This document shows positions 3,090 to 28,831 of a DNA stretch of 45,378 nucleotides, one piece after another. Position 1 is the stretch's first letter, and every line of letters starts with the position of its first letter. Source of the stretch: a virus (taxonomy: Duplodnaviria > Heunggongvirae > Uroviricota > Caudoviricetes); IMG/VR virus record IMGVR_UViG_2563366799_000010, positions 1-45,378 of that record; one strand, given 5' to 3'. The position numbers and the translations under genes were made by a program. Below the pieces are notes generated by a model. That model was not told the DNA's origin, made no database searches, and worked only from the letters and a program-made list of their open reading frames with translations.

Positions 3090-3844
3090 TATTTAGCCCT
3101 TACTAAAAAGTTGAATGCAATGTTACGTGGGCGTGTTTCGGTGCCGCCTGCATTTTCAATCGCCTGAAGTTGCCCGCCGCCTGGTTGGTTAATGTTGTAA
3201 GTGAGCGTTCCATTTAAACTACTATCAATACCAATAACATTGCCGGTCCCTGCACTACCTGCGCTCATGAGCAATCGGTGCGAGTGGCTTTGATAGGTAT
3301 GACCCTGAGCGCTTAACAGGCCACGGCCTGCATCAACTCCGCGCCCATCATCCCAGATACGAATAAATTCACCCCGTGATTCAGTAAGAACCAGGCCAGG
3401 GAAAACAAGCGCCAGTTTCGGGTAAGTTGTCGCTGAGAATGTCGCCCCGTTGAACTTCAGAAACGCCATATCAGCCCATTCAGTCATTACCGTATTGGGC
3501 ATCGCCGAGGACGGCCAGAAGAACGGAATACCGATAGCTGGCGCGCCAGCTCCCAAACGGAGGTTTGCGATAAGCGCATTCGTGAATTTTGTCACCAGAC
3601 CGTTAACGTCAGCATTGTCCAGAGCATCCGCGCCAGAGTTCGCAATAAACTGGCCCACCAGCGCAGCGATTGTTGTCGCCTGCCGAATTGCTTTGTTGAC
3701 CTGTGCGCTGGATGCTTTGCCTGCCGTAAAACCAGAAAGCAGAGCCGGAAGTGCTTCCCAGTCAGCTTGTGAAGTGACATTAGCGTTCGGATCAAGCGCG
3801 AACGCTTTAAAGTTATTTATTGCCATTAGAGTAAAGTCCCCCAT
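3089..3844 (-). CDS. Tail fiber protein with tail-collar-type C-terminal domain
   Basis: 251 aa; C-terminal region (..KLALVFPGLVLTESRGEFIRIWDDGRGVDAGRG..) resembles the phage tail collar fold; position upstream of Tfa; start may be the internal ATG near 3826. Confidence 0.6.
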   Translation of the reverse strand: MGDFTLMAINNFKAFALDPNANVTSQADWEALPALLSGFTAGKASSAQVNKAIRQATTIAALVGQFIANSGADALDNADVNGLVTKFTNALIANLRLGAGAPAIGIPFFWPSSAMPNTVMTEWADMAFLKFNGATFSATTYPKLALVFPGLVLTESRGEFIRIWDDGRGVDAGRGLLSAQGHTYQSHSHRLLMSAGSAGTGNVIGIDSSLNGTLTYNINQPGGGQLQAIENAGGTETRPRNIAFNFLVRAK

Positions 3845-4506: not shown

Positions 4507-5702
4507 GACTCCACCGTTATAACGATATTTTCCGGGGTACAGGACGCAGATTCGTTGTATCTGATATCAATGTTTGATGACGACAAAGCCCCCGGGGATT
4601 TCCCAATCGTCAGTTCCTGAATATCGTAATAGCGTGCATTACCGCCACTCACCACGCCAAGATTCGCCGGTGAGTAAATGCGACTTAAAAGGACCGAATC
4701 ACCAATCATCAGACTATTGATATAGTCGGAAATAGCCTGCTGGATCTGCTGCCCTATCTGTGAGGTATAACCCGTAAAAACTTTTAATTTAATCCGGGCA
4801 TAAACAGGTACATCACTGGAACGCGAGAATTTGATTACATGGGGATTGCCGTATTTATCCGGAACCGTAACGGATGTTGTACCGTGAGTGGCTGTCCCCT
4901 GGCCTTTATTCCCTCTGATAGCCTGAGCAATATCCGTCACATCACCGCCATCCACAATTACAGCAACAGAGTGTGGCGGTAACCCGTTACCGTCCTCCGA
5001 ACCAGTATCGTTTTCATAGAGTTTGTGGCGGGTTACACCGGTAACATTAGAAACGGCACCATCCAGTGCTTCAAATGGGGTTATTGATGGCAACGCAACA
5101 CTTTGCGACTGGCGGATACGTAACTCCGCATCAGTTTCTGCTGGAGTGCCTACAGTAGCTGCAGCAGGATTGGTTACCGAAACCCAGCCACGGGTTGGCG
5201 TATTAATTTCAGTGATAGTTCCAGCCAGCGCCGCCACTGCACCACTGACGGAACATTTTGCGGTCGCCATCACTGTACCATCCACGCCGACCACCACTGA
5301 AGCAGGCAAACGCCATATCACATTATTACTGTCTTTCACGCTGCCATTAATGATGGTTGTTCCGGCAGTTCCTGTAAGAAGCAAATCAACCGTAGAGTTC
5401 GTCGCGCCTTTACGTGAAATACCATTTATTTTCACGTTGCTGGTCAGTGCAGCCCCATAGCCGGTTGCCGGTGAAAAACAGTTGTAGACAGTTATCGCCA
5501 TATTATTGGCATCATGAATCGCCAGCGCCATCAGAGCCACCATCTGGCCGTCTTTGCTGTCCGGTTCGAGGTAGGCATCACTGCCATAAACCTGCTGAAA
5601 ATAGCTAATCAGGGTGCTGAGTATCGTCTGATAATCAGGCGCACTGATCCCCTCCGCGGTTACCTTTGCAGATAAACCGAGAGAATCAAGGTTCAGAGCC
5701 AT
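4503..5702 (-). CDS. Baseplate J-like protein
   Basis: 399-aa ORF; size, position and sequence character of baseplate J/gp47-like wedge proteins. Confidence 0.65.
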   Translation of the reverse strand: MALNLDSLGLSAKVTAEGISAPDYQTILSTLISYFQQVYGSDAYLEPDSKDGQMVALMALAIHDANNMAITVYNCFSPATGYGAALTSNVKINGISRKGATNSTVDLLLTGTAGTTIINGSVKDSNNVIWRLPASVVVGVDGTVMATAKCSVSGAVAALAGTITEINTPTRGWVSVTNPAAATVGTPAETDAELRIRQSQSVALPSITPFEALDGAVSNVTGVTRHKLYENDTGSEDGNGLPPHSVAVIVDGGDVTDIAQAIRGNKGQGTATHGTTSVTVPDKYGNPHVIKFSRSSDVPVYARIKLKVFTGYTSQIGQQIQQAISDYINSLMIGDSVLLSRIYSPANLGVVSGGNARYYDIQELTIGKSPGALSSSNIDIRYNESASCTPENIVITVES

Positions 5703-6055
5703 TACGCCTCCGATGTAACAGTCGTTATTCCATAGAGAGTGTCGATTTCAGCGGAAAACATGACACGTCGGGTCGTGGTATCCACCGTCGTATTGAAAGA
5801 GAGGATTGATTTAACGCCCCGCGTTTCCAGAATGCGTTTTCTGATCGCCAGGTTGTAAGTTTCCGGTTTTTGCCTGCCCAGTACGGACTGAATCCACGGT
5901 GTCCCCTCGGTGGTGTCGAGGAACCATTGCCCGTACCATAATTCGAATCGCGTTTTCACGGCCTGCGCCACGGCCTCTGGTGAGTTAATCAGCCAGGTAT
6001 CATCGCCGCTGCCAAAGGTGTAATCACCGTCGGCGTCTTCACGTCTGTATCGCAT
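5702..6055 (-). CDS. Small baseplate protein (gp25/XkdS-like)
   Basis: 117-aa ORF translationally coupled between spike and baseplate J genes. Confidence 0.45.
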   Translation of the reverse strand: MRYRREDADGDYTFGSGDDTWLINSPEAVAQAVKTRFELWYGQWFLDTTEGTPWIQSVLGRQKPETYNLAIRKRILETRGVKSILSFNTTVDTTTRRVMFSAEIDTLYGITTVTSEA

Positions 6056-6810
6056 CAGTTAGGCGCTCCTGTGTTACCGCCGCCGGTCTGTACTCCGCCG
6101 TGCGTGTGCGTCATCAGGCTCTTACCACCAGCTTTTACATCGTTAGTCACCGTGACAGGGCCAAGCATCGTCGCGGTGCCGCCGCTTTCGCCCATCCCCT
6201 GAGAGAGATTCCCGTTTATCGTCACGTTGCCGTTTAGCGTGATGGTGGGTGATGTGATCGTGGTTCCTCCTTCTGCTGTCGCCGTCAGCGCGCCGGGGGT
6301 TTTAACCGTGATGTTATGGCCTGCGGCCACTTCCACAAACGCAGCGCCATCATCAGTACGCAGTTGCGCGGCGCTGGTGCTGATTCCGCTGATTTTCTGC
6401 GCCTGAGACTGCGGACCGACGATACAGAACGCATCCGATAAGTCATGCACCCGGTCGTCGACAGGCTCCTGCACTCCGCCGTTCTGCCACCAGAAATCGA
6501 TGCAGCGATCGGCGAAAATCACCAGGCATTCATCACCGGCTTTAACCGGGAACGTTAGCGTGCATCCCCCGCCGCGCGGAAATACCACCGGTACATCCAC
6601 CAGCAGCGGGTAATTTTTGGTAACGCGGTTCCCGTCGTTATCCGTTTCAACCGAACGGATAGCAGGCTGCACAACCGCCGTAACCGCGTCAGGGTCGAAT
6701 GACTGGACGATGCCAGGCAAAGCGACGCGGATCTGGTTCTTTGTGGTGTCCCTCTCAGATTTGAATGTTTCGGCAAGGTCGCCGCTGCGGGTCTGGTCAG
6801 ATACTGCCAT
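6055..6810 (-). CDS. Baseplate spike / gpV-like protein
   Basis: Gly/Thr-rich C-terminus typical of spike proteins; ORF track start at 6831 is a TTG, ATG at 6810 has a GGAG RBS. Confidence 0.55.
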   Translation of the reverse strand: MAVSDQTRSGDLAETFKSERDTTKNQIRVALPGIVQSFDPDAVTAVVQPAIRSVETDNDGNRVTKNYPLLVDVPVVFPRGGGCTLTFPVKAGDECLVIFADRCIDFWWQNGGVQEPVDDRVHDLSDAFCIVGPQSQAQKISGISTSAAQLRTDDGAAFVEVAAGHNITVKTPGALTATAEGGTTITSPTITLNGNVTINGNLSQGMGESGGTATMLGPVTVTNDVKAGGKSLMTHTHGGVQTGGGNTGAPN

Positions 6811-6828
6811 TTGGTAGGCTCCAGAAAG

Positions 6829-6856
6829 CAAAAAACCCGCCGGGTGGCGGGTTTAT
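6829..6856 (-). terminator. Rho-independent terminator closing the inserted two-gene moron
   Basis: Minus-strand hairpin AAACCCGCC-ACCC-GGCGGGUUU followed by a U-tract; right arm overlaps the stop codon of the 138-aa gene. Confidence 0.55.
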
Positions 6857-7269
6857 GAATCGTAGGTTTTCAATTTTTCGAGTTCATCAGGAGGAAGTTC
6901 TATGAAGGTTTCCTCAGCTAATTTTATCAGCCTGGGAAGCATCGAATCAGCTTGCTGATGAGCGTTTGGGCTGATGATTGCCAATATCTGATAGTGTTCA
7001 TCGACATAAAGATGCTGAGCATATACCAAAAAATTATCACATGTCCGTTCACTCAGAGATGCTTCTGGAGGCCAGGGTTTATCGCCAGGTAGCTTTAAGT
7101 GAATTTTCCTGATGTTGGCAGCCATCGCATCATAGTTACGTTCAAAACCGCCTAACGAACCAAAACACCAGAACTGGGAACCCTTAGAAATATAATCGGC
7201 AAGCATTTGAGCATACTTATGTGCTGCAGCTAAATGACGCAATTCTCCCGTGATACTGACTTTTGCCAT
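6853..7269 (-). CDS. Hypothetical protein (moron gene 2 of 2) inserted in the baseplate module
   Basis: 138-aa ORF, 1-nt gap from upstream gene, own terminator, visibly more AT-rich than flanking tail genes; no recognisable motif. Confidence 0.55.
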   Translation of the reverse strand: MAKVSITGELRHLAAAHKYAQMLADYISKGSQFWCFGSLGGFERNYDAMAANIRKIHLKLPGDKPWPPEASLSERTCDNFLVYAQHLYVDEHYQILAIISPNAHQQADSMLPRLIKLAEETFIELPPDELEKLKTYDS

Positions 7270-7270
7270 G

Positions 7271-7843
7271 TCACATCCATTTAGGGGCGTCGGCTCCCAG
7301 CATCTTATGCGATGTTGAGATCAGTTCAATCGCCTCTTCACGGGTAACATTCTCTGACAAGAGTTCAGCCTGGAAAGGCTGAGATTGCCTAACTTCAGCG
7401 GCCAACTGAGTTGCAGTGTTCTCGACGGCGGTCAATGCACGAACATATTTGCGTTTTAATGGGCGCAACATTTGCAGATGGCCTTGCCACATAGGGGACC
7501 TTTCCGCTTCAGAGAACATATCCACTAAATGACCTTTAGCATTTCGGCATGCCTTAGCAAGACCTTCGAGGTGGGATAAAAACCCTTCCGGAAGCTCATC
7601 AACAATGATTCTTCCATTTCGAAAAGCTTCGAGATGAGACATGCCTTCCTTCGCGGTATTTTCGATTTCTTGAGCGCGTGCAGCAATCGCGGTACAACGA
7701 CGAAATGCCTCTTCAGCATCTAATCGTTGTGGCAGTTCACAAGCATTAGAGATCAGGGGTTTGAAAGCACCGTTAACAGCTTCCTGAACCTGATTCATTT
7801 GTTGTGTAATTGTTGCCAGCGCAAATGCGTAGCTAATCGCCAT
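7271..7843 (-). CDS. Hypothetical alpha-helical protein (moron gene 1 of 2)
   Basis: ORF track start (7849) is a TTG; ATG at 7843 has a GAGGGA RBS; preceded by a 160-bp AT-rich non-coding region. Confidence 0.55.
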   Translation of the reverse strand: MAISYAFALATITQQMNQVQEAVNGAFKPLISNACELPQRLDAEEAFRRCTAIAARAQEIENTAKEGMSHLEAFRNGRIIVDELPEGFLSHLEGLAKACRNAKGHLVDMFSEAERSPMWQGHLQMLRPLKRKYVRALTAVENTATQLAAEVRQSQPFQAELLSENVTREEAIELISTSHKMLGADAPKWM

Positions 7844-8011
7844 ACCCAATCCCTCTGTCGTTTTAAACGACTATACACCACTTATTCAAAGTTAGCTGAG
7901 CGCTAAAAGTTCGCAAAGTTTAGTGATCATGCAACCACCTAGCAAGCGATAAAAAATCATTATTTAGTGAATGTGAACAAACTCAACACTATGCAGAAAT
8001 GTAACTTTTGG

Positions 8012-8365
8012 TTAACCATCAACCTTTTTACACGGGAATGAACCGATGATTTTCGGCGCGTCCATGTTGTTCTGCAGCAGCTGGACGTTCAGGAATCGCG
8101 TTTCGGTACCCGGACGGCGAATGTATTCAAAGCCATAATTGTTGCCATCTTTAGCAGGCATAAGCCCCATATCAGCCTTCATCCCGTTACCGTCACCGAG
8201 GGTTTTAATTTTCTGTGACGTAACGTATTCCCCATTAATCCTAAACATTGAATCAGGAATTAGCTCCAGCTTGTAACCTGCGCATTGCAAGGTTATGCCG
8301 CCACTGTTCGCAGCCAGTGACAATCCCGGCAAGAGGAATAACCCGACTAAAGCCAACCTTTTCAT
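8012..8365 (-). CDS. Secreted/periplasmic small protein with signal peptide
   Basis: N-terminus MKRLALVGLFLLPGLSLA-AN is a classic Sec signal peptide with AxA cleavage site; GGAAGG RBS before the ATG; starts 2 nt after the upstream tail gene. Confidence 0.55.
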   Translation of the reverse strand: MKRLALVGLFLLPGLSLAANSGGITLQCAGYKLELIPDSMFRINGEYVTSQKIKTLGDGNGMKADMGLMPAKDGNNYGFEYIRRPGTETRFLNVQLLQNNMDAPKIIGSFPCKKVDG

Positions 8366-8367
8366 TA

Positions 8368-9432
8368 TCAACCTTCCCGTTGCGAAGACGATGCAGAACG
8401 AAGATCCTGCGCTCCACGCGCTTCACACATCATGTCCATGTACCACGCCTGGCCCCTTGTATCGCCAGTGTACATAATCCCGCGCACAATATAAACGCCA
8501 TCTGTTGCGATACTGGCAGGCTGCGCCGTGGTGCCGCTGAGCGTGATATTTCCGTCCGTGTTCTGGTCGGTGATCTGCCCACCAGCCATAGCGATATCGT
8601 TGTTCGACAACGCGGTGCGATATACGGAAGCCTGATCCAGCTGAATAAGCCCGTTAACCCGGATATTCGGGTTAATCAGCGCGCGGACGTTTACGCCGTT
8701 TCCGATGGTCTGCTGCGGCATGCCGATAAGCCCGGTGGCGCTGTTGAGCACAATCGCGTCGTGAACATACTCGTTATTCGCCACCATCTGCCGCTGGCCG
8801 TCCACGAACTGCCATGTTGCGCCACATTGCCCGGCCACGTTATCCATAAGATGCCGTGTCATGCCGAACAGCACCCGGCCCCGGGGGAATACGGTAGCAG
8901 GCATTTCAGGCGTCAGGCCTTCGGTCGCGCCTTTGGCCTCGAAGTCTTTCATCAGCGCGCGGTTCACGTCTGCAACCGTGTAACCTGCTGCCAGCGTCTG
9001 CGAGGTTATGCTGGTGGCAAACGCCAGATCCGTATCGGCTGCCTGAATCAGGACATAGGAATCAATAGGGCTGTCTTTACCGGTGACCGAGTAGCGAATA
9101 TCGCCGCTGAAAATCAGCCCGTAGTTACGGCCATCACTCTGGCCCACGTCCGAAGCGTCGACTTCGCGCACGGTCCCGACGTCGCTTGCCGCCACCTCCG
9201 GCGCGATACCGTCGTAACCGGCAATCAGCCGCACTTTCGAAAACTCCTGCCCGGTGATGCGGTTCACCGTATCAGCTGACAGGTTGTAGATTTTGAACGT
9301 TCCCACCCGCGACGCGCTGCTGATGTTGAACCAGTCGATCGTAAAGGTCACTTTAAAATCGCTGAGCTCAATCCCCTGCCCGTTATTATCCACGAGCTGC
9401 AGCTCGAAATGTCTCATCCAGTTCTGTGACAT
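8368..9432 (-). CDS. Baseplate hub / tail protein
   Basis: 354-aa ORF in the tail module, translationally coupled to neighbours. Confidence 0.45.
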   Translation of the reverse strand: MSQNWMRHFELQLVDNNGQGIELSDFKVTFTIDWFNISSASRVGTFKIYNLSADTVNRITGQEFSKVRLIAGYDGIAPEVAASDVGTVREVDASDVGQSDGRNYGLIFSGDIRYSVTGKDSPIDSYVLIQAADTDLAFATSITSQTLAAGYTVADVNRALMKDFEAKGATEGLTPEMPATVFPRGRVLFGMTRHLMDNVAGQCGATWQFVDGQRQMVANNEYVHDAIVLNSATGLIGMPQQTIGNGVNVRALINPNIRVNGLIQLDQASVYRTALSNNDIAMAGGQITDQNTDGNITLSGTTAQPASIATDGVYIVRGIMYTGDTRGQAWYMDMMCEARGAQDLRSASSSQREG

Positions 9433-9737: not shown

Positions 9738-10324
9738 TAGCCGAGCCCCAGTAATGACGCCGCGTTACCCGTGATGCTTTTCAGCAGCGAGGTATTTGGC
9801 GGCTTAGTGGTTTTGTTGCCGGTATTCAGTACCGCCGACGTGCTGGCCCCGTCCTTCATGTTGGTTTTATCCGCGACGGTGATCTGCTGCGTCTGCGAGA
9901 TAAGAACCTCCCTCAGGGTGAGGACGGCGGACAGGACGTTTTCGGTTGTCTTGTCTGTCGTCACTTCCAGCGCGCGGATCAGCATGTTGCTGTACAGCCG
10001 TTTGCCGGTCACCACATCGAAAGGAATACGGCTCGCCTGCAGGTCGAGTATCTCCTGATACGTCTGCTGGGGACTCAGCCCGAGCAGGCTGGTGGCCGTC
10101 AGGTTACTGGCAAAATCCAGCAGCGATCCGCCACCAGCGAAACCGACCTCCATCACCACTTCAGACGGTTTTTTGTAGGCATGATCAGCAATAGCGGCCC
10201 CGACCTCGACAGGGTGCTCTGTTATCTCCAGCGTGTCGGTATGCTTCTCAGAAACAACCACGCTGGGGACAATCATCCCTATTTTCCGGCTCTGCTGCTG
10301 AAAGAGCGTAGAGAGAATATCCAT
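9737..10324 (-). CDS. Tail protein (XkdP-like position, downstream of tape measure)
   Basis: 195-aa ORF overlapping the tape measure stop. Confidence 0.4.
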   Translation of the reverse strand: MDILSTLFQQQSRKIGMIVPSVVVSEKHTDTLEITEHPVEVGAAIADHAYKKPSEVVMEVGFAGGGSLLDFASNLTATSLLGLSPQQTYQEILDLQASRIPFDVVTGKRLYSNMLIRALEVTTDKTTENVLSAVLTLREVLISQTQQITVADKTNMKDGASTSAVLNTGNKTTKPPNTSLLKSITGNAASLLGLG

Positions 10325-12303
10325 TAGCCCACCTTCGTTTGATTACCGCGCATGACCTGGGCGTTTGCCGACTGCTGCCGACGCTCGACCTCGGTACCGA
10401 CAGAACGCGGATCACCCCCACCGTAAATGTGGTAGGTGTTTTGCTGGTTCACGTTTGCCCCGCCAATTCCCGCGACGGCAGCCTTCCCGATTAACTCCTT
10501 CGAATAGATGTTTCGCCCATTCTCATGGTGAATAATGCTACTCATTAATGCTGACATCGTTTGTGGGTCGTTAATATTTAAAGCGGCCTGCGGATTTACT
10601 CCCAGACGTTGGGAAACCGCCTGTATATAGGCTGCTGTGTTGTTATTGTCGGAAGCGGGTGCCCAGGTGGAGATAATTTTCTCCACGCTGTTTATCCCTC
10701 TCCCGGCATACAGCACGAGCTGGCGCGAAAGAGCGCGCAAACCATCAAAGGCGGTTTCGAATCGGGCAAACCTGCCGCCGGGGCGCTCAAGCTCAGCACC
10801 CGCCTGACCAGCAAAATTAAGGTTTCCGGGGTTATTGTTCCGCTCACCTCGCTTTGCAGCCTGCGCATGCTGCTCTGGTTCATCCTCTCCAATGCTCCTT
10901 ATGGTCTGTCCTACACTGCGCGGATCCCAACCGGTTTTATCCTTTATCCATTCCGCCACACTGTTAGCGCTGTCTGTTACCATCGGCATCGCTGACGGGT
11001 TTTCGCTGCCCTGATTAAGCATCTGTTTGCCGATGCTGGCGGCATCAGCCCAGCGGCCATCTTTAATGGCGTTGAGCAGGTCGGCGATCATGTTCAGCAT
11101 TTTGCTGAACTCGCCCATCTGGTCGATAAAGTTGCTGAAATCCCACTTCAGGGACCATGATTTGGGGTCAATATTGAGCAGTTTCGCCAGCGCTTTCGCC
11201 AGTTCGTTAACGGTCGTTTTAAGGTCACGAACCATCTTCAGCGCGGCGTCGACTTCCGGCTTCCACTTGCCCCAGTCAATCAGGCTGTCCCCGCCTTCCT
11301 TCCAGGTCTGATAGTCCTCCCACAGAAGGGCAATCCCCGCCGCCAGCGCGGTAATGAGGCCAATCGGCGACATCCAGAACGTACTGTTCAGAATGCGCAG
11401 CGCAATCGTCAGCGCGCCGAACAACGAGATCAGCTCCCGCGTTTGCTTATCCAGCGATTGCCACCAGTTGATAAGGCTGGATGTCCCCTCAATAAGCCGG
11501 AAGAATAGCCGCCCGATAATGTCCCCGAGCGCCAGAATGCCTTTTATGGCTTTCGTCAGGGTCTGCTCGATGCGCGGGAAGTTATCCAGAATGTGGCGGC
11601 GCAGCGTGTCCAGCGAACCCGCCAGACCACCAGCAAGATTAGAGCCGATTTTGTCACGGGCCATGCCTGCCATCGCGCCGAACTCACGCAGGGAGGTCAT
11701 GAACTTATTGGAGCTTCTGGCCGCCTCGTCAGCATTGAAGCCGATAGCTTTCGCCATTGCGCTGTACTGCCCGGAGAAACCGCCCACCCCCCGGCGCATC
11801 GCCATGAGGGTATTTTCGTCAATGCCCAGCATCTGCGCATACTGGTTAGCCCGGTAATACGGCATGCTGCTGAGCTTCTGACCGACACCCGTAAAGATAG
11901 CGGCCATGTCGCGCATGTTGCCGCTGGCGTCACGGGTCTGTACGCCCAGGCGATTCAGGAAGCCTTCCGCGCCGGGATTGTTACGAACAAACCGGGAGAG
12001 GCTTTCCAGAGAGGTTCGCGCCGCGTCAACGCTGCCGCCCACCTGCGAAACCGCATAGCCAATAGACTGAATCCCCTGAACCGTCGCGCCGGTGCGCTGT
12101 GACGCCCAGTAGAGATTATCCAGCCCCGAGGCGATCTTAGCCGTGAAGGCCACCACGGTAAGCGCGGCACCTTCGACGGCCAGCCCCATTTTGATGGCGT
12201 TTGCGGTCGTACCGGCGAGAACAGAGTCGAGCTTTGACGCGCCTGCTTCATCGATATCAAAACCGAGCGAGACGAGGAAATCTTTAATAGTCTCAGCGTT
12301 CAT
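10324..12303 (-). CDS. Tail tape measure protein
   Basis: About 660 aa, Ala/Gly-rich with helical repeats; ATG at 12303 preceded by a GAGAGG RBS (ORF track extends to 12363). Confidence 0.75.
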   Translation of the reverse strand: MNAETIKDFLVSLGFDIDEAGASKLDSVLAGTTANAIKMGLAVEGAALTVVAFTAKIASGLDNLYWASQRTGATVQGIQSIGYAVSQVGGSVDAARTSLESLSRFVRNNPGAEGFLNRLGVQTRDASGNMRDMAAIFTGVGQKLSSMPYYRANQYAQMLGIDENTLMAMRRGVGGFSGQYSAMAKAIGFNADEAARSSNKFMTSLREFGAMAGMARDKIGSNLAGGLAGSLDTLRRHILDNFPRIEQTLTKAIKGILALGDIIGRLFFRLIEGTSSLINWWQSLDKQTRELISLFGALTIALRILNSTFWMSPIGLITALAAGIALLWEDYQTWKEGGDSLIDWGKWKPEVDAALKMVRDLKTTVNELAKALAKLLNIDPKSWSLKWDFSNFIDQMGEFSKMLNMIADLLNAIKDGRWADAASIGKQMLNQGSENPSAMPMVTDSANSVAEWIKDKTGWDPRSVGQTIRSIGEDEPEQHAQAAKRGERNNNPGNLNFAGQAGAELERPGGRFARFETAFDGLRALSRQLVLYAGRGINSVEKIISTWAPASDNNNTAAYIQAVSQRLGVNPQAALNINDPQTMSALMSSIIHHENGRNIYSKELIGKAAVAGIGGANVNQQNTYHIYGGGDPRSVGTEVERRQQSANAQVMRGNQTKVG

Positions 12304-12532
12304 TATCCTCTCTCCATTTCTCAATGCGCCGCTGGTTGTCTGCCTTAACGGCCAGGTGGTCATTCATCAGCGCGATATCGCACAGATCGACAGATCCATC
12401 CTTCAGCGCGTAATAAGGGATTAACCCGGCGTCAACCGGGTCAAGGAGATAAGACAGCCCGTCAGGCAGGCTGTTGAGGGTTAACCCTGAGGCTGGCCCG
12501 GCGTCGCGCTGGTAGGGCTCACGGGCAAAAAA
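12293..12532 (-). other. Programmed -1 frameshift region: slippery heptamer T_TTT_TTG (12532..12526) plus open -1 frame extending the chaperone to a TGA at about 12293
   Basis: Read directly: the -1 frame from the slippery site is stop-free for about 78 codons and ends just after the tape measure ATG; matches the conserved tail chaperone frameshift arrangement. Confidence 0.5.
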
Positions 12533-27361: not shown

Positions 27362-27985
27362 CTAACGTGTGACCGCATTCAAAATATTGTCTGCGATTGA
27401 CTCTTCCTTGTGGCATTGCACCACCAGAGCGTCATACAGCGGCTTAACAGTGCGTGACCAGGTGGGTTGGGTAAGGTTTGGGATTAGCATCGTCACAGCG
27501 CGATATGCTGCGCTTGCTGGCATCCTTGAATAGCCGACGCCTTTGCATCTTCCGCACTCTTTCTCGACAACTCTCCCCCACTGCTCTGTTTTGGCTATAT
27601 CAACCGCACGGCCTGTACCGTGGCAATCTCTGCATCTTGCGCCCGGCGTCGCGGCACTACGGCAATAATCCGCATAAGCGAATGTTGCGAGCACTTGCAG
27701 TACCTTTGCCTTAGTATTTCCTTCAAGTTTTGCAACGCCACGGTATTTCCCCGATACCTTGTGTGCAAATTGCATCAGATAGTTGATAGCCTTTTGTTTG
27801 TCGTTCTGGCTGAGTTCATGCTTACCGCAGAATGCAGCCATTCCGAATCCGGCTTGTGATTGCGCCATCCCCATAGCAGCCATCACATCAGTACCGGAAA
27901 GAGAGTCAGAAGCCGTAGCCCGTGGTGAGTCGCTCATCATCGGGCTTTTTGGCGAATGAAATTTAGCTACGCTTTCGAGTCTCAT
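27362..27985 (-). CDS. Q: Late gene antiterminator Q
   Basis: 207-aa protein essentially matching lambda Q as recalled, including the Cys-rich zinc-binding region. Confidence 0.9.
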
Positions 27986-28647
27986 GCGCCTTCTCCCTGT
28001 ACCTGAATCAATGTGAGATTTCCGCAGAACACTGCGCCGGTATCGATATACATTTGGTTGGCAAATTTAAGTGGTTTCACTGCTGGCGTATGACCAAAGA
28101 TAAACGTGTCCGCGCCTTTAATTTCTTTCACGATCCCGTCTTGTGAGTTGCTGATTCGTTCGCGGTTCCAGATTACCTGCTGATGATCAACTGGCTTTCC
28201 AAATTCGTATTCGTCACAAGGATAATCGGCGTGGCAGATGACATATTTTTTACCTTTGCTCACCAGTTCGATGATTAACGGAAGTTCTTCTGCTTTATGG
28301 GCAAGAGCTTTAGCCAGAATTTCTTTGTCGTAATCGAGATTAAAGAACCAGCCACCGCCATTAAGCAGCCAGTGATTGACGCTTCCGCGCTCTGATAAGC
28401 CATCAATCATCATTTGCTCATGGTTTCCACGTACAGCTCTGAACCAGGGGAATGTGATTAATTCCAGGCATTCAACGTTCTCTGCACCACGATCAACCAA
28501 ATCGCCAACCGAGATAAGCAGGTCTTTTTTGGTGTCGAATCCTATCGTCTCCAGTTTTTTCATCAGGTTCGTGTAGCATCCGTGCAGATCGCCAACTACC
28601 CAAATATTTCGGTATTTGCTGCCATCAATTCTTTCGTAATAGCGCAT
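27982..28647 (-). CDS. ninI: Ser/Thr protein phosphatase (lambda orf221 / NinI)
   Basis: Metallophosphatase motifs GDLHG, GDLVDRG, GNHE; start at the internal ATG giving about 221 aa. Confidence 0.8.
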
Positions 28648-28831
28648 CTCTTTCACTCCATCCGCGATGAACCATAAGAACGTCGTTGACGATGGCGTGC
28701 ATTTTCCCGTCTTTATCATCAACGTATTTTCTTACCGTGCCGCGACTACATTTCAGTCTGCGTGCCACTTCTGTCTGGTTTCCGTATGCTTCAACGAGCA
28801 TGTCTGGAATGGTTTTTACTGAGAACGTCAT
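28625..28831 (-). CDS. ninH: NinH
   Basis: 68 aa from the internal ATG; matches lambda NinH as recalled. Confidence 0.7.

Follow-up and report, generated by a model that had tools for sequence, protein, structure and literature searches.

The ribosome-dependent mRNA endonuclease YafO of Escherichia coli attaches to the 50S subunit and brings about cleavage 11–13 nucleotides (nt) downstream of the start codon (PMC7781912). The YafN-YafO pair of E. coli K-12 and the ribosome-dependent mRNA interferases of the RelE/ParE superfamily (HigB, YafQ, RelE, YoeB) are among the known systems closest to the element considered here, a cassette of two coupled genes, ORF190 and a YafO-family toxin gene. The cassette lies at 7843..6853 on the minus strand of the IMG/VR virus record IMGVR_UViG_2563366799_000010, and all coordinates given below refer to the whole 45,378-nt stretch of this record that was analysed (the window). 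The region 6855..8011 is best explained as a mobile cargo of two genes that was inserted into a variable slot of an E. coli prophage, a SEN34/Brunovirus-like myovirus with lambdoid regulation. From sequence comparison, we estimate at roughly 70% the probability that this cargo is a moron expressed in the lysogen and encoding a type II-like toxin–antitoxin pair whose antitoxin represents a new family.

As in K-12, where the operon dinB-yafN-yafO-yafP includes the pair, the toxin belongs to the Pfam family PF13957, and immediately upstream of its gene is that of the partner, the two being tightly coupled. However, the partner in the window is a 190-amino-acid (aa), all-helical protein, dissimilar to the 97-aa YafN, and the pair is phage-borne with a promoter-like element of its own, whereas the K-12 pair sits in the SOS-regulated dinB operon (PMC7781912). 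A survey of 2011 described YafO toxins paired with Phd-type antitoxins or with uncharacterized partners identified by adjacency, none of them on phages or plasmids (PMC3141249).

The gpA–gpQ locus of P2-like phages is an anti-phage hotspot (PMC9122126; PMC13586616). At this locus, Table S5 of Rousset et al. (2022) lists a two-gene 'YafO_toxin' system (no. 123) with 24 occurrences in E. coli, and flags its 'protein 1' in an unlabelled column (PMC9122126). Like the cassette, system 123 lies in an accessory hotspot of a phage and has the gene for an unannotated protein (~197 aa) upstream of that for a YafO-family toxin. This toxin and the 138-aa protein of the window share 34% identity (expectation value, E = 2e-24), and hhalign matches the C-terminal 64 residues of its partner to the profile of ORF190 (E = 2e-4, probability 47%), the aligned part including the tail LI-x-S-x-H-K-x-L-G...P-x-[W/F]. 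System 123 differs in its phage family and locus, and the N-terminal two-thirds of its partner are not detectably similar to ORF190.

The morons of lambdoid phages are additional genes that lie within late operons and have a promoter and a terminator of their own. The cassette is like them in being present or absent at a fixed junction, in its distinct composition, in its promoter-like element, in the terminator that follows it and in its location in a Q-antiterminated late operon. It is unlike them in that the terminator comes from the backbone slot and is common to all cargos, in that the hub and spike genes on either side of the slot are those of a myovirus baseplate block, and in that the identical unit shuttles among at least five phage architectures. 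Prophage- and satellite-borne toxin–antitoxin defence modules, such as P4 gop-beta-cII, share the proposed logic of a toxin–antitoxin pair that resides in a mobile-element hotspot and protects the lysogen via growth arrest (PMC9122126), but they have no sequence relationship with ORF190-YafO, for which a defence role is only proposed.

The element is of a well-known kind, a moron with a toxin–antitoxin pair, and the NCBI annotation already names its toxin, so that the module is not of unknown type, as the initial annotation of this DNA had it. What appears to be new on comparison of the sequences is the recognition of the partner family as an obligate companion of a YafO subfamily, the promoter-like element and leader that the cassette carries with it, the movement of the unit among at least five phage architectures, and the role of the site that separates the hub/secreted-protein genes from the spike gene as a cargo hotspot for which an empty-site comparator exists. 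No description of the ORF190-YafO pair was found in literature searches on YafO with prophages, morons or NetFlax, nor in that on SEN34/Brunovirus.

The toxin gene and its partner

All tail and baseplate genes of this part of the window, as well as the cassette, lie on the minus strand. The two genes of the cassette are:

7843..7271, minus strand: ORF190, putative antitoxin/partner, 190 aa from the ATG at 7843 (192 aa from a TTG at 7849), stop codon 7273..7271
7269..6853, minus strand: YafO-family toxin gene, 138 aa, TAA stop codon 6855..6853

Their junction reads TGA-C-ATG, so that the two open reading frames (ORFs) are separated by exactly 1 nt, in agreement with the initial annotation. The ATG at 7843 is the most likely start of ORF190, because the protein is 190 aa long in nearly all homologues and in the PGAP call, and because a Shine–Dalgarno sequence (AGAGGG, 7856..7851) is found 7 nt 5' of it. 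The AT-rich non-coding stretch that precedes the genes, originally given as 160 base pairs (bp; 7850–8011), is consequently 168 bp long, while its AT-richness was correctly noted.

The 138-aa protein scores 63 bits with the YafO_toxin family PF13957, whose curated gathering cut-off is 25 (E = 2.9e-17; 87 of the 101 positions of the profile are covered), and its AlphaFold2 model, built with 19 homologues (mean predicted confidence, pLDDT, 93.8), has a RelE/HigB-like fold. A conserved face of the toxin comprises H57, R75, H86 and H104. Profile and model together assign the protein to the YafO family and hence, as in type II systems, to a recognized toxin superfamily; the early guess of a toxin–antitoxin function was to this extent borne out. 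Identity to K-12 YafO is only 25% over 125 residues (E = 5e-7), and the score against the NCBIfam equivalog model NF007377 is 31.8 bits against a cut-off of 153. Because it falls so far under this threshold, the protein is regarded as a distant member of a YafO subfamily and not as an orthologue.

The association of the two genes was followed by gathering ORF190 homologues from public assemblies, IMG/VR and GTDB genomes. This yielded 62 loci including the window, of which 61 hold both genes, and in 61/61 of these two-gene loci the ORF190 homologue is followed after exactly 1 nt by a YafO-family gene. Four ORF190 relatives that are recognized by profile only (E = 3e-4 to 1e-34, ~21–25% identity) are likewise all directly upstream of a YafO gene, with the two genes overlapping or spaced by 2–3 nt. 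The architecture is that of type II systems: small, co-oriented and coupled genes with the putative antitoxin upstream. One of the four remote pairs lies beside a transposase, one makes up a short contig by itself, one lies beside a cI-like repressor, and one is located between gpA and the portal gene of a P2-like Hafnia prophage; the locus of one of the four does not look like a phage. The Hafnia alvei pair (L073/L074, 4001–5026) occupies the gpA–portal defence hotspot.

The closer homologues are also widely distributed. The Brunovirus slot described below holds, in addition to the cassette of the window, variants diverged to 62–65% identity, which occur together with an extra upstream gene. 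Other copies are found in the baseplate region of a second myovirus, with a spike-like gene and a 115-aa gene on one side and baseplate J on the other; in siphovirus tails, where the assembly-chaperone and tape-measure genes flank them; and in the nin region of Klebsiella lambdoid prophages. Across the loci compared, the whole cassette is found intact in at least five phage contexts that are unrelated to each other.

ORF190 belongs to phrog_35514, to which no function is assigned, and has no meaningful match in sequence searches of Pfam, NCBIfam, PADLOC or PDB. A match to DUF3335 (E = 0.024), given by one family member only, was rejected. Neither an exhaustive profile search of 1.84 billion representative proteins nor a second search including the remote members returned any annotated relative. 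The family is tiny, with 33 clusters at 90% identity and 15 representatives among the 1.84 billion proteins; its source-named members are all from Enterobacterales and are all annotated as 'hypothetical'. The model of ORF190 is an all-helical bundle (pLDDT 73) with generic structural neighbours only. Comparison of its profile with that of YafN by hhalign gave a probability of 0.2%, which places ORF190 outside the Phd/YefM (YafN) family. Neither of the two cassette proteins matches a virion family, and this agrees with the earlier impression that they do not resemble virion components.

Both genes are under strong purifying selection, with a ratio of non-synonymous to synonymous substitution rates (dN/dS) of ~0.05 for each. 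ORF190 diverges faster than the toxin, since in the collected loci the identity of the partner drops to 36–49% where that of the toxin holds at 49–65%. Antitoxins usually diverge faster than their toxins. The C-terminal motif S-H...P-x-W of ORF190 is nevertheless invariant and is kept even in the remote homologues; this tail would be the likeliest toxin-binding element of the protein. By these comparisons the toxin gene has in ORF190 an obligate partner that is tightly coupled to it and strongly constrained by purifying selection, and ORF190 is probably the antidote of the YafO-family toxin.

The insertion slot, its cargos and its terminator

Along the direction of transcription, the order of the genes is tape-measure, Dit-like, baseplate-plug, hub, 119-aa ORF, gap, ORF190, toxin, terminator and spike. 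The features surrounding the cassette are:

12363..10324, minus strand: tape-measure gene
9432..8368, minus strand: 354-aa hub gene
8371..8012, minus strand: 119-aa small secreted-protein ORF with a signal peptide, part of the backbone, stop codon 8014..8012
8011..7844, minus strand: AT-rich regulatory gap and 5' leader of the cassette, 168 bp, G+C 0.37
6855..6823, minus strand: intrinsic terminator, with stem 6854..6833, T-run 6832..6827 and a GCTTTCT tail
6822..6055, minus strand: baseplate spike gene, with GGAG at 6822..6819 and ATG at 6810

The limits of the insert were provided by the prophage of E. coli DX6, in which the slot is empty: the stop codon of the secreted-protein gene is followed by ~20 nt and then by the same terminator and spike leader. 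On the basis of this comparison the inserted segment is ~6855..8011, with its boundary directly after the stop codon of the secreted-protein gene (8014..8012). Its G+C content, 0.454 in the coding part of the cassette and 0.369 in the gap, is lower than that of the hub (0.571) and spike (0.585) genes; the initial annotation was correct in calling the insert more AT-rich than its neighbours, and the difference (0.37–0.45 against flanks of 0.57–0.59) is of the kind expected for a moron.

Other relatives carry different genes at the same junction. In SEN34 the gene there codes for a protein of 140 aa whose N-terminal segment is hydrophobic, in Yersinia phage YP3 for one of 266 aa and in vB_EcoM-606R2 for one of 170 aa, all of them unrelated to the cassette. 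The SEN34 gene, which had been considered as a possible YafO homologue for its length, proved to be this unrelated protein. Among 5426 complete E. coli genomes, the baseplate module is present in ~322, and only 34–37 of these have the ORF190-YafO cargo; elsewhere in E. coli the slot holds the gene for a DUF4282 or a DUF2335 protein, or a pair of unrelated hypothetical genes. The cassette is accordingly absent from, or replaced in, relatives at the same junction (the empty slot of DX6, the alternative cargos, and 34–37 occurrences out of 322), and the homologues are not conserved at this site in all related tail modules, so that the moron interpretation first put forward for this DNA stands. 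As judged from these sequences, SEN34-like prophages have a cargo hotspot at the point where the hub/secreted-protein genes give way to the spike gene.

In YP3 (L001), the 266-aa cargo gene is flanked by a perfect direct repeat of 124 nt (2607–2730 and 3531–3654) that contains the spike leader, the ribosome-binding site and the ATG, which suggests insertion via duplication of the target region.

The insert had been placed directly between the 354-aa gene and the spike gene. While the tail module is indeed interrupted here, the 119-aa ORF stands between the hub gene and the gap. This ORF overlaps the hub gene by ATGA and encodes a protein with a Sec-type signal peptide, which matches phrog_3443 (function unassigned) and no Pfam family. 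The N-terminus of the protein is variable, but its C-terminal half (GLMPAKDGNNYGFEYIRRPG...FPCKK) is kept in SEN34, YP3, 606R2 and the E. coli relatives; because the ORF is conserved in all the relatives, it is considered part of the backbone and not of the cargo. Brunovirus-like contigs with the 62–65% diverged cassettes (L048, L050 and L051, ~5115–5759; L038, 5535–5777) have a different gene at the position of the small secreted protein, coding for either a 214-aa putative lipoprotein (LAGC lipobox) or an 80-aa Thr/Ser-rich secreted peptide. In vB_EcoM-606R2 (L003, 3513–4577) the hub gene is split into ORFs of 212 aa and 139 aa, possibly because of a frameshift or a sequencing error.

As initially reported, the terminator overlaps the stop codon of the second gene: its 9-bp G+C stem (6854..6833), followed by six T, extends over the TAA at 6855..6853. 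The predicted folding energy is -17.9 kcal/mol (z = -3.3), and 0 of 200 shuffled sequences fold as well. Its presence was therefore described correctly, but it is not private to a self-contained cassette. The sequence AACCCGCC-ACCC-GGCGGG-T6-GCTTTCT is common to every cargo in the slot and to the empty slot (L002, L003, L066–L068, L075), and since it is present in the DX6 empty slot and behind all the alternative cargos, it belongs to the backbone slot; its assignment to the cassette was dropped. Equivalent terminators close the cassette in other phage contexts. A near-identical terminator and tail closes the YafO cassettes of the nin-region and siphovirus contexts (L049, L058–L060), and the shared terminator may be a homology anchor for exchange of the cassette.

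The position of the terminator has a consequence for the spike gene, whose ATG (6810), with its GGAG ribosome-binding site, is ~16 nt past the T-run. There is therefore no room for a promoter of its own, and the gene must be transcribed through the terminator. A candidate for the factor involved is encoded elsewhere in the window:

27985..27362, minus strand: Q-type antiterminator gene (PF03589)

This gene matches PF03589 with 192 bits and is matched by the Q gene of SEN34 in a tblastn search; SEN34 has a lambdoid regulatory layout. The Q protein of the window would let late transcription pass the terminator at 6854..6827. Directly upstream of the Q gene, and overlapping it, is a gene for a calcineurin-like phosphoesterase (Metallophos; 27982–28722, minus strand).

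The promoter-like element and the leader

The initial annotation had also implied a promoter in the gap. What accompanies the cassette is a promoter-like element with conserved hexamers and a variable spacer, followed by a structured leader:

7945..7917, minus strand: promoter-like element, -35 TTGCTA (7945..7940), 17-nt spacer, -10 TAAACT (7922..7917)
7906..7892, minus strand: hairpin 1, a palindrome TTAGC-N5-GCTAA just after the predicted transcription start
7871..7857, minus strand: hairpin 2, GTCGTTTAAAACGAC, immediately 5' of the Shine–Dalgarno sequence
7986..7959, minus strand: second, upstream promoter-like site, TTGAGT-16-AATAAT (9/12 matches)

The pattern TTGnnn-N17/18-TA[A/C]ACT was found in 24 of 24 distinct upstream sequences, down to 36% identity of the partner protein, at 70–78 nt (once 100) before the ATG. 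When 14 distinct sequences are aligned, the columns of TTG and TA-ACT show no variation, unlike the spacer, which is the pattern expected of a working sigma-70 promoter; transcription is predicted to start near 7910. The core of 102 nt from the -35 hexamer to the ATG is 89–91% identical between the window and the cassette variants L032/L033, while synonymous sites of the adjacent genes differ at 51–68%. Together with the terminator that follows, which pre-exists in the backbone, this element gives the cassette the promoter-plus-terminator layout of a moron at the sequence level. The second promoter-like site is kept only among cassette copies at least 90% identical, and carries less weight, since shuffled sequence contains more such sites than the region itself. 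A TATAGT at 7875..7870 was rejected as a -10 hexamer, having no -35 upstream and not being conserved.

Hairpin 1 is paired in 69 of 69 cells across 14 distinct sequences, compared with 9–44% in slid controls. One double change, from G-C to T-A, occurs in one clade, while the loop varies freely. The hairpin is a candidate operator or 5'-terminal RNA stem-loop. Hairpin 2 is retained in all variants, its inner pair being U-A, U-G or A-U. In the most divergent variants (L005, L054, L008–L010, L058–L060) its place is taken by a G+C-rich stem followed by a U-run. This terminator-like stem leaves no room for a promoter after it, and it may be an attenuator of the toxin–antitoxin operon. Comparison of the leader with Rfam revealed no known RNA family, only a sub-threshold chance match to P9 (20.8 bits against 43). 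From the conservation seen, it is the cassette that brings the promoter-like element and the structured leader.

Function of the cassette

If the cassette is a lysogen-expressed toxin–antitoxin moron, it would be transcribed in the lysogen from its own sigma-70 promoter, and the terminator would halt lysogenic transcripts from the cassette and from the hub operon, leaving the spike gene silent. The 138-aa protein would act as a ribosome-dependent mRNA endonuclease like E. coli YafO, and the co-translated ORF190 would bind it directly and keep it inactive, with the S-H...P-x-W tail as the likeliest contact. Loss or inactivation of the partner would free the toxin and cause translation arrest. 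Infection by another phage, host transcription shut-off and loss of the prophage are possible triggers, and the outcome of the arrest would be either protection of the abortive-infection type or addiction to the prophage. In the lytic cycle, RNA polymerase modified by Q would pass the terminator, and the spike and later baseplate genes would be expressed.

Several observations weigh against this interpretation. ORF190 is unrelated to YafN, is bigger than typical antitoxins, and shows no recognizable DNA-binding domain in family or structure searches. The toxin reaches only 31.8 of the 153 bits required by the YafO equivalog model, so that the biochemical details of YafO may not transfer to it. 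The promoter hexamers match the consensus at 8/12 positions and were not reported by a simple consensus scan, and the compensatory changes in the leader trace to one or few clades, and hence to few independent events. Moreover, neither protein matches a PADLOC-DB v2 model at E ≤ 0.1, and the related system of the P2 hotspot is missing from the table of evaluated systems in the paper that catalogued it (PMC9122126); these last two points also count against a role in defence.

Within the toxin–antitoxin interpretation, it is tentatively suggested that the role for which the cassette was selected is anti-phage abortive infection: a competing phage would deplete or inactivate ORF190, and the YafO-type RNase would stop translation before the invader completes its cycle. 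The cassette is found only in accessory hotspots of temperate phages, and its own promoter-like element fits expression from a prophage. In addition, remote pairs occur in the P2 gpA–portal locus, an established anti-phage hotspot (PMC9122126; PMC13586616), where the related pair was catalogued 24 times (Table S5, PMC9122126). However, such hotspots hold non-defence cargo too, and ORF190 has no sensor-like domain. The case for defence is one of guilt by association and is less certain than the toxin–antitoxin assignment itself, and addiction or selfish maintenance is a live alternative.

A more specific and rather doubtful version is that ORF190-YafO is an unrecognized abortive-infection family in which the helical partner would be both antidote and infection sensor, the unit would shuttle between hotspots, and control would be exerted by the conserved, structured leader, which resembles an attenuator in some lineages, and not by classical operator autorepression. 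Recombination at the shared terminator ends may, in this case, drive the shuttling between Brunovirus baseplate, siphovirus tail, lambdoid nin and P2 gpA–portal locations.

The same toxin–antitoxin cassette might instead serve mainly its own maintenance, as an addiction or stabilization module: cells from which the prophage is lost, and recombinants left without the cassette, would be killed, and no advantage against other phages would result. The classical type II architecture, the spread over many phage backbones independently of any one host function, and the strong purifying selection on both genes are all consistent with such a selfish element. We nevertheless consider this unlikely as the main role, because an integrated prophage is rarely lost and segregational killing would gain little, and because the preference for known defence or accessory hotspots would be left unexplained.

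Less probable still is that ORF190 is not a protein antitoxin at all, and that the YafO-like protein is controlled by the leader RNA or by attenuation, or is intrinsically non-toxic, with ORF190 acting as a co-effector, adaptor or regulator. Such a role would account for the lack of an antitoxin-like or DNA-binding domain among the matches, for a partner larger than the toxin, and for the two conserved leader hairpins, with the terminator-like stem and U-run that precede the ribosome-binding site in the divergent variants; in PARIS, both genes are needed and neither is an antitoxin (PMC9122126). Yet the upstream position of ORF190, its 1-nt coupling, its strict co-occurrence with the toxin gene across deep divergence and its faster divergence make up the classical signature of an antitoxin, and the invariant C-terminal tail suggests a binding peptide.

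Finally, it is very improbable that the pair serves the lytic cycle (e.g. in host translation shut-off or tail assembly) as a plain part of the late operon. Its orientation is that of the late genes, and Q-antiterminated read-through would transcribe it. However, most close relatives and the empty-slot prophage lack the pair, which occurs also in nin regions and non-tail contexts, has its own conserved promoter-like element, and matches no virion family.

The toxin–antitoxin moron with ORF190 as probable antidote is therefore the interpretation that we prefer. The advance would become more than incremental only if a defence phenotype or an unusual mode of control were demonstrated. Approximately 6% of complete E. 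coli genomes carry the module that holds the hotspot described here, with many alternative cargos, and the junction in SEN34-like prophages could be mined for lysogenic-conversion or defence genes, as was done with the P2 and P4 hotspots. Should the partner be confirmed as the antidote, it would represent a new antitoxin family for the small YafO toxin superfamily and would provide a function for phrog_35514 and for a 'hypothetical protein' of dozens of prophages of E. coli, Salmonella, Klebsiella, Serratia and Pantoea.

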